Virus record (IMG/VR): IMGVR_UViG_2713896899_000001
Location: 1-4,531 of that record
Reading direction: 5' to 3' (one strand)
Source: a virus
Taxonomy: Duplodnaviria > Heunggongvirae > Uroviricota > Caudoviricetes
Length of the DNA: 4,531 nt
The notes beneath the pieces were generated by a model. That model saw nothing but the letters and a program-made list of their open reading frames with translations, was not told the origin of the DNA and did not search any database. Position numbers and translations under genes: made by a program. Within the stretch, counting starts at the first letter, position 1; every line of letters begins with the position of its first letter. Positions 2,898-4,521 of this stretch are shown here, piece by piece.

Positions 2898-3452
2898 ATG
2901 ACCACTATAACCGATAAGAAACAGTATCCAGGCGAGCAATATCTTAATGAGCTGATCACCAACATAGAGTTTGCTGCAAGGGCACCAGTTGAAGTCGTGA
3001 GAGCGATGGCAGCAGAGCTACAGAAGCGGCGCGAAGCTGATAGTGCAGAACCTGTAAGCCAAACTTACAAGTTGCCAGTTAATACACCTTGCCAAGATGC
3101 GCCAGCCCATATCTGGCTGCAAACGGCTGGAGTATGGCCAGAAGATGGCGAGTTAAGCGAATTAACGTGGTGCAGCCACAATCAGCACCATGATGACACG
3201 CTATATGTTCGAGCTGACCTTGTGAATGGCAACTATCCGGTAACTCCGGATGGTTGGATAAGCTGTGGTGAGCGAATGCCGGAAGAAACGGGTGACATTA
3301 TTGTTGTTTCGGATGGCATTGTAATGTCAGGGATTTCTTATTCTCGTCGTGACGGGTTCTATATAGCCGCATTGGAGTACGACGACGATGAGCCAATTGG
3401 CGGTGTAACCCACTGGATGCCGCTACCGGAACCACCGCAGGAGGTGAAGTAA
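2898..3452 (+). CDS. Probable DUF551-domain phage protein (184 aa)
   Basis: SD AAAGGAGAG 2885-2893, ATG 2 nt after the upstream stop. C-terminal region GWISCGERMPEETGDIIVV...GGVTHWMPLPEPP fits the W...LPE...HWMPLP pattern I associate with DUF551 in enterobacterial prophages. Locally GC-rich (one 60-nt line counted at about 58% GC versus about 40-43% in the Sak4 and 1951-2241 regions). Confidence 0.5.
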   Translation: MTTITDKKQYPGEQYLNELITNIEFAARAPVEVVRAMAAELQKRREADSAEPVSQTYKLPVNTPCQDAPAHIWLQTAGVWPEDGELSELTWCSHNQHHDDTLYVRADLVNGNYPVTPDGWISCGERMPEETGDIIVVSDGIVMSGISYSRRDGFYIAALEYDDDEPIGGVTHWMPLPEPPQEVK

Positions 3453-3736
3453 TGGACTCCTTCGCGAAATATACGATTATTGACTGGATAGCCTTCCTTC
3501 AGGTTTTGCTCATCTGGTTTTATATGGCTTACAGGAGTGGACAGTGGATTGTCAGTGTAGCCTGTAGCAAGGGATGGCGTTGGTGGAACCGAAAGAATAA
3601 AAAAGCACTGGCATTGGATTCGTTTTACGAAGCATTCAATCTTAACAGCCTTCAGCCTGGTTCTGTCATTGTAGTCACCACTCAAAGCGGCATGACGATA
3701 CAAATTCACAAGCCAAAGGAGGAAGGTCGTGGCTAA
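3452..3736 (+). CDS. Small predicted single-pass membrane protein (94 aa), unknown function
   Basis: TAATG overlap with the upstream stop (TAA 3450-3452 / ATG 3452-3454), SD AGGAGG 3438-3443. About 19-residue hydrophobic stretch IIDWIAFLQVLLIWFYMAY followed by a basic cluster KGWRWWNRKNKK (positive-inside rule implies a cytoplasmic C-terminal domain). Confidence 0.55.
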   Translation: MDSFAKYTIIDWIAFLQVLLIWFYMAYRSGQWIVSVACSKGWRWWNRKNKKALALDSFYEAFNLNSLQPGSVIVVTTQSGMTIQIHKPKEEGRG

Positions 3737-4013
3737 CCTGCAACTTGCCGTCAAAGGTGAATACTTCGACGCCATGATTCGCGGAGAGAAAACGGAAGAG
3801 TATCGCCTGTGTAATGACTACTGGAATAAGCGAATCATGTTCCGGGAATATGACCGCCTGATTATCACAAAGGGATATCCGAAGCGCGACGATTCCAGCC
3901 GCAGAATTGATATTCCGTATGACGGATATGAAATCAAGACAATCACACATCCGCACTTCGGTGATAAACCGGTAAAGGTATACGCGATAAAGGTAAATAT
4001 CGGCAATGAATAA
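3729..4013 (+). CDS. Small ASCH/PUA-like fold protein (DUF3850-type), 94 aa, GTG start
   Basis: GTG 3729 preceded by a strong SD AAAGGAGGAAGG (3715-3726); overlaps the preceding gene by 8 nt. N-terminal LQLAVKGEYFDAMIRGEKTEEYR matches the ASCH-type beta1-loop-helix signature (compare E. coli YqfB [22 protein letters not shown]), followed by DRLIITKGY. Fold call is motif-based and tentative. Confidence 0.5.
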   Translation: MANLQLAVKGEYFDAMIRGEKTEEYRLCNDYWNKRIMFREYDRLIITKGYPKRDDSSRRIDIPYDGYEIKTITHPHFGDKPVKVYAIKVNIGNE

Positions 4014-4017
4014 CAAT

Positions 4018-4042
4018 CCTCGCACTCGCGGGGATTTCTTTT
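4018..4042 (+). terminator. Putative Rho-independent terminator (hairpin 1)
   Basis: Stem CCTCGC (4018-4023) / GCGGGG (4028-4033), 6 bp with one G-U pair, loop ACTC, followed by ATTTCTTTT (4034-4042). Lies 5 nt after the stop of the 3729-4013 gene. Confidence 0.45.
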
Positions 4043-4049
4043 ATCTGAA

Positions 4050-4072
4050 CTCGCTACGGCGGGTTTTGTTTT
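4050..4072 (+). terminator. Putative Rho-independent terminator (hairpin 2, tandem)
   Basis: Stem CTCGC (4050-4054) / GCGGG (4059-4063), 5 bp with one G-U pair, UACG tetraloop (UNCG-type), followed by TTTTGTTTT (4064-4072). Sequence-related to hairpin 1. Confidence 0.45.
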
Positions 4073-4085
4073 ATGGAGACAAGAA

Positions 4086-4430
4086 ATGTCAGATTTGGCT
4101 ATGAAGGTTTTGAAATGGCAATCGACTGGCGATGTTGGCATCAGTAGCGCAACTCTTGCCTCAATCGCATGTGGCCTGAAAAAGAATATCTATGGTCATA
4201 GCTTCGGTGCTCCACATGACGCAGCCGATTTCAGACGATGCGTTGCACTTGTTGAGCAGATTCCAGAAATCAGAGCTTCATTCGACAAAGTTGCAAAGCG
4301 CGTTCCGGCATTCAAAGGCATCCTCAACGAATGGGATTCCCTCGTTGCTCTGTTGAAGTCTGAAATGAAGATACACGGAAACAAAGCACCAGAGACTTAC
4401 AGAAGAATTAGCGAGTTACGCAAGGACTAA
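4086..4430 (+). CDS. Hypothetical protein (114 aa), isolated gene downstream of the terminators
   Basis: ORF track ORF, SD GGAGA 4075-4079 about 6 nt upstream of ATG 4086, stop TAA 4428-4430. Sequence [31 protein letters not shown]... has no motif I recognise and no obvious hydrophobic TM segment. Confidence 0.55.
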
Positions 4431-4501: not shown

Positions 4502-4521
4502 TATCACTTAAATAAGTGATA
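4502..4521. promoter_or_regulatory. Perfect 20-bp palindrome TATCACTT-AAAT-AAGTGATA, operator-like
   Basis: Arms 4502-4509 and 4514-4521 are exact reverse complements (8 bp each) around a 4-bp AT spacer. Half-sites TATCAC/GTGATA are identical to the outer hexamers of the lambda CI/Cro operator consensus (TATCACCGCCGGTGATA) but with 8 instead of 5 intervening bp. Sits in non-coding DNA at the window edge. Confidence 0.4.

Follow-up and report, generated by a model that had tools for sequence, protein, structure and literature searches.

Neighbouring DUF4752 and ASCH-like genes in the early-left operon of a lambdoid prophage are likely to be independent accessory genes

The 4,531-nucleotide (nt) window analysed here, the whole of a stretch of DNA from a Caudoviricetes virus (IMG/VR record IMGVR_UViG_2713896899_000001), carries two overlapping genes that each encode a protein of 94 amino acids (aa). 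The first, which starts at an ATG, is a DUF4752 gene (positions 3452-3736, stop codon at 3734-3736; Pfam PF15944, phrog_667), and the second, which starts at a GTG, encodes a protein with an ASCH/PUA-like signature (3729-4013, stop codon at 4011-4013; phrog_625) and a PUA-like beta-barrel fold predicted with AlphaFold and Foldseek. Genes and motifs lie on the + strand unless stated otherwise. Judged by its gene content and by its relatives, the window covers the exo-xis ('ea') segment of an early-left (pL) operon from a lambdoid/P22-like prophage. A sequence-only reading had proposed that the two genes constitute a dedicated accessory module. We found that they assort independently and that the joint between them is shared with unrelated upstream genes. 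In our judgement they are very likely two independently assorting accessory genes that have become chance neighbours in a mosaic region, and do not make up a dedicated system.

Results

The two genes occur mostly apart

If the two genes formed an obligate module, they should be found together and adjacent to each other, also where their homologues have diverged. We counted matches with at least 80% coverage in GenBank phage records and found the ASCH-like gene in 142 records, the DUF4752 gene in 51 and the adjacent pair in 13. Across 5,426 complete E. coli genomes, the corresponding numbers were 1,466, 539 and 266. The ASCH-like gene was without an adjacent DUF4752 gene in 129 of the 142 phage records and in ~82% of the E. 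coli genomes that carry it, and the DUF4752 gene was without an adjacent ASCH-like gene in about half of the E. coli genomes and about three quarters of the phage records that contain it. For IMG/VR, we took the 80 loci closest to the ASCH-like gene of the window and 79 loci anchored on DUF4752, with neighbours counted up to a distance of 3 kb. DUF4752 was found near 21 of the 80 ASCH-anchored loci, and the ASCH-like gene near 53 of the 79 DUF4752-anchored loci.

More distant homologues were found apart throughout. A collection with one representative genome per bacterial or archaeal species yielded 12 loci with the ASCH-like gene in other genera (Brenneria, Citrobacter, Enterobacter, Kluyvera, Scandinavium, Dryocola and one alphaproteobacterial metagenome-assembled genome), and at none of them was a DUF4752 gene present within 3 kb. 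Conversely, the neighbours of divergent DUF4752 genes gave no match to the ASCH profile at any of three loci. One of these three genes was located in an ea region of Enterobacter soli, another in the early region of a Mu-like phage, immediately behind transposition genes A and B, and the third in the replication/nin region of a lambdoid phage, between replication genes and ninB. Since these are quite different early regions, DUF4752 appears to move as a lone cassette. The two families also differ greatly in size: when clustered at 90% identity, the ASCH-like family forms 649 clusters and DUF4752 forms 47. The co-occurrence and adjacency expected of an obligate two-gene module, divergent homologues included, were therefore not observed. 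The sequence-only reading had itself named a lack of co-occurrence across genomes as grounds for giving up its proposal, and the 13 pairs against 142 and 51 phage records, together with the 0 of 12 loci in other genera, indicate that neither gene requires the other.

The overlap belongs to the ASCH-like cassette

The overlapping arrangement itself had been described correctly. A Shine-Dalgarno (SD) sequence for the ASCH-like gene, AGGAGG at 3717-3722, lies inside the last DUF4752 codons, 6 nt before the GTG. The 8-nt overlap, GTGGCTAA (3729-3736, read directly from the sequence), holds both this GTG and the TAA stop codon of the upstream gene, so the ASCH-like open reading frame (ORF) is in the +1 frame relative to the DUF4752 ORF.

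The same junction was found in loci that contain the ASCH-like gene and no DUF4752. The upstream genes there varied and encoded one of many different DUF551 variants, a Lar-family Zn-ribbon protein of 100 aa, a Cys-rich protein of 132 aa or yet another product. At most of these loci by far, the upstream protein ended in ...QEVNRG, directly followed by its stop codon, with an 8-nt overlap with the ASCH start identical to that of the window. The joint ...AGGAGGTTAACCGTGGCTAA was shared by more than ten different genes upstream of the ASCH-like gene. At the DNA level, the loci lacking DUF4752 carried the joint ...CCGCAGGAGGTTAACCGTGGCTAA..., and similarity between one locus and another started only ~15-25 nt before the start codon; the DUF4752 version of the ASCH joint reads AAAGGAGGAAGGTCGTGGCTAA. 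A GGAGG was positioned at a constant distance from the ASCH start in nearly all related junctions, irrespective of the gene upstream. Because an identical joint is found behind unrelated upstream genes, the overlap and the SD sequence are no sign of a partnership between DUF4752 and the ASCH-like gene. As these junctions indicate, the SD sequence, the GTG start and the 8-nt overlap form a constant left boundary of the ASCH cassette, carried by the 3' end of whichever gene precedes it.

DUF4752 genes change their 3' ends depending on what follows. Where the ASCH-like gene is present, the DUF4752 protein ends in KPKEEGRG, and where it is absent, the protein ends in KPKEEK and the hairpins described below follow directly. 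A few other ASCH-less DUF4752 loci contained a 32-aa stump of the ASCH-like gene fused to foreign sequence, and in still others a deletion has brought the start region of the ASCH-like gene up against the hairpins. To judge by their sequences, these three kinds of ASCH-less loci look like separate gain or loss events.

The left-hand joint of the DUF4752 gene is built in a related way. The DUF551-domain gene upstream (2898-3452) meets DUF4752 in the cassette linker CCGCAGGAGGTGAAGTAATG (3435-3454), which contains AGGAGG at 3439-3444. The DUF551 stop codon TAA (3450-3452) overlaps the DUF4752 ATG (3452-3454), and the last DUF551 codons (...PEPPQEVK) hold the linker together with the SD sequence for the DUF4752 gene. 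A C-terminal PQEV(N/K) tail is common to many upstream genes of related loci, and the core CCGCAGGAGGT of the 3435-3454 linker is also present 5' of the ASCH-like gene in loci without DUF4752. The linker core CAGGAGGT recurs from one gene boundary to the next within the ea region (3435-3454 and 3711-3736), where it provides the upstream C-terminus (PQEV-N/K...) as well as the next SD sequence. Since more than ten unrelated upstream genes carry an identical ASCH joint, the linker looks like a recombination boundary sequence. Conserved boundary sequences were reportedly described by Clark et al. in 2001 for the early region of HK620. In a published model, phage mosaicism results from homologous recombination at short sequences that are conserved at boundaries (PMC3233612).

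These results bear on the proposal that DUF4752 and the ASCH-like protein make up a dedicated two-gene system in which a PUA-like sensor is paired with a membrane effector of the toxin, abortive-infection or superinfection-exclusion type. Translational coupling in the window is tight and the SD sequence is strong, the pair does recur (phage records, 13; E. coli genomes, 266), and small membrane proteins are common as effectors and PUA-like domains as sensors. However, each gene is very often found without the other, the coupling joint is the same behind unrelated upstream genes, and divergent DUF4752 genes are without an ASCH neighbour. Neither protein matched any known or candidate defence-system model of PADLOC-DB at E <= 0.1. 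The position, in an early lytic operon beside recombination genes, is also no known slot for a moron expressed in the lysogen. We regard a dedicated system as decidedly improbable.

The second gene encodes an ASCH/PUA-like protein

The phrog_625 profile aligned from its first position to position 93 with residues 1-93 of the ASCH-like protein. The GTG start at 3729 was upheld by this alignment, by the same start in RefSeq and by an ATG at the same codon in other genera. Alignments of close and distant homologues delineated the ASCH signature octapeptide G19-E-K21-T-E-E24-Y-R26 (GxKxxExR, encoded at 3783-3806). G19, K21, E24 and R26 were invariant in close homologues, and in distant homologues (40-55% identity) K21 was invariant while G19, E24 and R26 were at least 90% conserved. 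The phrog_625 family has conserved positions of its own in addition, namely W32, R35, G49-Y-P and T73-H-x-H-F-G.

An AlphaFold (AF2) model built on 40 homologues reached a pLDDT of 82.6. The top Foldseek matches of this model were ASCH structures (3iuw, PH0355 = 2z0t, E. coli YqfB, PF0470 and ZmASCH), with a probability of 0.99 for 3iuw and modest E-values. In a search of viral structural models, the first two matches were close relatives (52-59% identity, TM ~0.9), and the named matches of lower rank were mostly annotated as DUF3850, as ASCH, as activating signal cointegrator or as RNA-binding protein. The signature noticed by the sequence-only reading is thus borne out by the conserved GxKxxExR and by the structural matches, and an ASCH/PUA-like fold for the product of ORF 3729-4013 is supported by the model. 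The Pfam ASCH profile (PF04266) gave 14.3 bits against a threshold of 21.2, and the match covered only residues 6-28 and the first 23 profile positions. Distant homologues showed weak, sub-threshold Pfam ASCH matches in 5 of 62 and 10 of 27 cases, along with a few DUF3850 matches. Since the score lies below the Pfam cut-off, we assign the protein to ASCH at the level of the superfamily only. Searches of PDB chains with both proteins of the pair and their profiles returned nothing meaningful, and neither protein matched NCBIfam.

The phrog_625 family is almost wholly uncharacterised, although it comprises over 1,200 clusters at 50% identity (1,244 by our count). Its gene is present in ~27% of complete E. 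coli genomes, many Stx phages included. The literature on ASCH and phages concerns other contexts. When long or N-terminally extended family members were scanned with Pfam, the only fusion found was to Ea22, and the other matches were weak Zn-ribbon matches. In some database proteins the ASCH domain is preceded by an N-terminal part that is Ea22-like or gives no Pfam match, and these fusions probably stem from single-base indels in the linker or from gene-calling errors. One IMG/VR locus had a single G missing from the linker GGAGG.

Two functional readings of the ASCH-like protein were weighed against these data. The first is that it is an N4-acetylcytidine amidohydrolase of the YqfB type that feeds nucleotide salvage for phage replication. 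The catalytic residues of YqfB are Lys21, Thr24 (the nucleophile), Arg26 and Glu74 (PMC9599836). The Lys and Arg are present in the ASCH-like protein, but the position of Thr24 is occupied by a Glu that is at least 90% conserved in the family, so the protein does not carry the full set of catalytic residues of this enzyme type. The hhalign comparison aligned only the motif to YqfB K21/T24/R26 with an E-value of 0.19, which is not significant and served for residue matching only. The family furthermore has its own GYP and THxHFG motifs. We consider a YqfB-type enzyme very improbable indeed.

The second reading holds that the ASCH-like protein acts in restriction alleviation or counter-defence. 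Its signal or substrate would be a modified base or nucleotide, and it would work with, or in the manner of, a Lar-type Zn-ribbon protein, DUF4752 being unrelated to this role. A Lar-family gene (PF14354, E = 1e-8) lies directly upstream, with the identical 8-nt overlap, in 6 of the 80 IMG/VR loci. Among its structural relatives is a viral protein of 168 aa that bears the name 'Restriction alleviation protein' (BFVD A0A8S5UN54; TMq 0.69, E = 7e-6), and ~6 of 27 N-terminally extended family members have paired CxxC motifs before the ASCH domain. The equivalent regions of Rac and lambda presumably hold Lar and Ral. On the other hand, the Cys-rich extensions lacked detectable similarity to Lar, both by Pfam and by phmmer comparison of the Lar-like neighbour with the extensions, and the name of the BFVD entry may cover only the other half of that 168-aa protein. 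For DUF4752, adjacency in this mosaic region turned out to carry no information, which calls for equal caution here. We think this reading unlikely. The same low standing applies to its fuller form, in which phrog_625 proteins would be early counter-defence or restriction-alleviation factors partnered by a Lar-like Zn-ribbon, fused or adjacent, and DUF4752 a separate early protein acting at the membrane.

The first gene encodes a predicted single-pass membrane protein

Membership of the first protein in DUF4752 was clear: PF15944 matched with 123.9 bits against a gathering cut-off of 27 (E = 2.7e-36), with residues 8-91 aligned to positions 2-84 of the 84-position profile, and phrog_667 matched with E = 6.6e-39. 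In agreement with the small single-pass membrane protein that had been proposed, Kyte-Doolittle analysis predicted one transmembrane segment at residues 8-26 (TIIDWIAFLQVLLIWFYMA, encoded at 3473-3529). This is the sole strongly hydrophobic stretch of the protein, with a best 19-residue mean of 1.78, and it was kept in 11 of 11 homologues down to 48% identity, with values of 1.46-2.09. In these 11 homologues the 25-residue C-terminal flank of the segment carried a charge of +4 to +7, while the N-terminal flank ranged from -1 to +1. With one hydrophobic segment and a basic C-terminal flank (positive-inside), the protein is predicted to be a single-pass membrane anchor. DUF4752 is probably oriented N-out/C-in, with its basic part of ~65 residues predicted to lie in the cytoplasm. 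In the low-confidence AF2 model, residues 9-48 formed a long helix, and a short helix and a beta-hairpin came after it. A phmmer search against the PDB suggested similarity to WD40 proteins (whole-sequence E 5.8e-5), which we rejected as spurious since no single stretch passed the threshold; we attribute these matches to the Trp-rich GWRWWNRK stretch within residues 29-61. Our literature search found no paper that mentions DUF4752.

For both genes we also weighed the possibility that one or both ORFs are not genes and overlap by chance. Both are short, and long antisense ORFs run over the pair on the minus strand (3359-3775 and 3675-4025). Against this stand the strong family matches, the conservation of the proteins and their motifs down to 40-50% identity, the 1,244 ASCH-like clusters at 50% identity and the confident fold of the second ORF. 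The conservation data refute chance ORFs, to which we give next to no credence, and the antisense ORFs were set aside as by-products of conserved sense frames, no family library having been searched with them.

Terminator-like hairpins and the setting of the pair

Two intrinsic terminator-like hairpins, both with T runs, follow the ASCH-like gene. Hairpin 1 (4015-4046) has a 9-bp GC stem and a T run, and it aligned base for base with the feature annotated as 'tL4 terminator' in HK022 (X51962); by this homology, stem and T run we classify it as a tL4-type terminator. Hairpin 2 (4047-4076) directly adjoins it, and both are conserved in ST104 and HK022. The fold of 4010-4085 had an energy of -26.4 kcal/mol, with z = -4.6 against shuffled sequence. 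The pair had been placed at the end of the operon, just before terminators. The hairpins are real, but the operon does not end there: a 114-aa phrog_1229 gene (4086-4430; PHROG E = 8e-51) follows in the window, and xis and int are the next genes in annotated relatives, as in an E. coli relative in which the phrog_1229 gene is followed by xis and then int. The hairpins are thus internal to the operon. Antitermination of the N/Nun type reads through such sites in lambdoid pL transcription.

The ORF list with its Pfam and PHROG assignments gave a single run of + strand genes across the window. Upstream of the pair these were a Sak4-like annealing ATPase (356-1036), SSB (1033-1620), the anti-RecBCD protein Abc2 (1644-1940), DUF5405 (1918-2241), DUF2737 (2238-2402), an Ea22-like gene (2399-2896) and the DUF551-domain gene introduced above (Pfam DUF551, 54 bits). 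In the GenBank phage search, the end of the window was 93-98% identical to ST104, HK022, mEp213/mEp043, CUS-3 and many Stx phages, and it also matched prophages in most complete E. coli genomes.

Other features of the window were noted alongside. Its recombination module (356-1940) consists of the Sak4-like ATPase and SSB followed by Abc2, without Abc1, and the corresponding module of ST104 is Erf-Abc1-Abc2, which is a further mosaic swap inside the same operon. A perfect 9+9 palindrome, TATCACTTA-AA-TAAGTGATA, is located at 4502-4521 in the non-coding stretch after phrog_1229. Its TATCAC half-site resembles operator half-sites of the lambda type. Similarity to HK022 and mEp213 ends at ~4469, which places the palindrome in a different mosaic block. 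An Rfam scan of the window returned no match.

Discussion

Some observations weigh against two independently assorting genes, or limit what can be said of either. The two genes are neighbours more often than expected from random placement: ~49% of the E. coli genomes with DUF4752 have an adjacent ASCH-like gene, and ~27% of all the genomes carry an ASCH-like gene. We regard the filling of adjacent slots in the same prophage type as a sufficient explanation for this enrichment. An optional functional interaction may still exist where both genes are present. The membrane topology of DUF4752 is a prediction and its structural model is of low confidence (pLDDT 65, pTM 0.32), and a ligand-binding role of the ASCH-like protein is likewise a prediction.

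If the two genes are independent accessory genes, their expression and action may be pictured as follows. Both would be transcribed early from pL, with antitermination carrying transcription through the tL4-type hairpins. Translation of the ASCH-like gene would depend on coupling to, or re-initiation from, whichever gene lies upstream, by way of the linker, and the linker core CAGGAGGT could double as a short patch of homology for cassette exchange between phages. DUF4752 would be inserted in the inner membrane through residues 8-26, leaving in the cytoplasm a small C-terminal domain and, next to the membrane, the basic stretch rich in Trp, and would act alone on a membrane-associated process of host or phage. 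The ASCH-like protein would be a soluble PUA-like barrel, with a pocket formed by K21, E24 and R26 and by the family-specific Y50 and H74. Early in infection this pocket would most likely bind RNA or a nucleotide, and its ligand might be a modified base; the protein would act alone as a binder and possibly as an enzyme. Both genes would be non-essential.

As a candidate for a new system the pair carries little weight: the two genes sit side by side by accident, in a part of very well sequenced phage genomes that is subject to heavy shuffling. It is a clean example of how a tight overlap and a strong SD sequence can belong to the boundary of one cassette, and in phage early operons an overlap alone should not be taken to indicate that two genes are partners. 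A clear phenotype for a gene of either widespread family would inform the poorly understood exo-xis region, which influences the induction of Stx prophages.

Comparison with known phages and families

The arrangement, which the sequence-only reading did not recognise as a described one, is already known: it has been in GenBank since the deposition of orf7 (DUF4752) and orf6 (ASCH) of Salmonella phage ST104 and is annotated in RefSeq. The ST104 genes have 97.7% DNA identity to the window over the 562-nt pair, with the same order, 8-nt overlap and downstream hairpins, and equivalents are found in CUS-3, HF4s, mEp213/mEp043 and E. coli prophages. The neighbouring genes are not the same, in keeping with a mosaic: in ST104 an Ea22-like gene lies upstream and xis follows directly after the hairpins, whereas the window has DUF551 upstream and phrog_1229 downstream. 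In HK022 (X51962) the early-left operon ends with an ASCH-like gene, tL4, xis and int, and its ASCH-like gene and tL4 are ~93% identical to those of the window. Since the HK022 match begins only at the ASCH start (query position 429), HK022 is without a DUF4752 gene.

Like other proteins of the ASCH superfamily, the phrog_625-type protein combines a predicted beta-barrel fold with an N-terminal GxKxxExR and a small, stand-alone size. Unlike them, it falls below the Pfam ASCH threshold, is without the Thr24 nucleophile of YqfB and has conserved motifs of its own. The exo-xis genes of lambda and Stx phages (orf60a, orf61, orf63, orf73, ea22 and ea8.5) occupy the same slot, from the recombination genes to xis, but belong to different protein families. 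According to the abstracts of two publications (PMC3824215, PMC8614690), genes of this region are small, expressed early and modulate the lysis-lysogeny decision, lysogenisation and induction; neither publication deals with DUF4752 or the ASCH-like protein, and the terms ASCH, PUA and transmembrane do not appear in PMC8614690. The joints of the window finally resemble those of the modular model of lambdoid phages of Susskind and Botstein, in which a short boundary sequence is likewise conserved amid unrelated neighbours. The linker of the window differs from such boundary sequences in that it also encodes the C-terminal residues of the upstream protein and supplies the SD sequence and start of the next gene.

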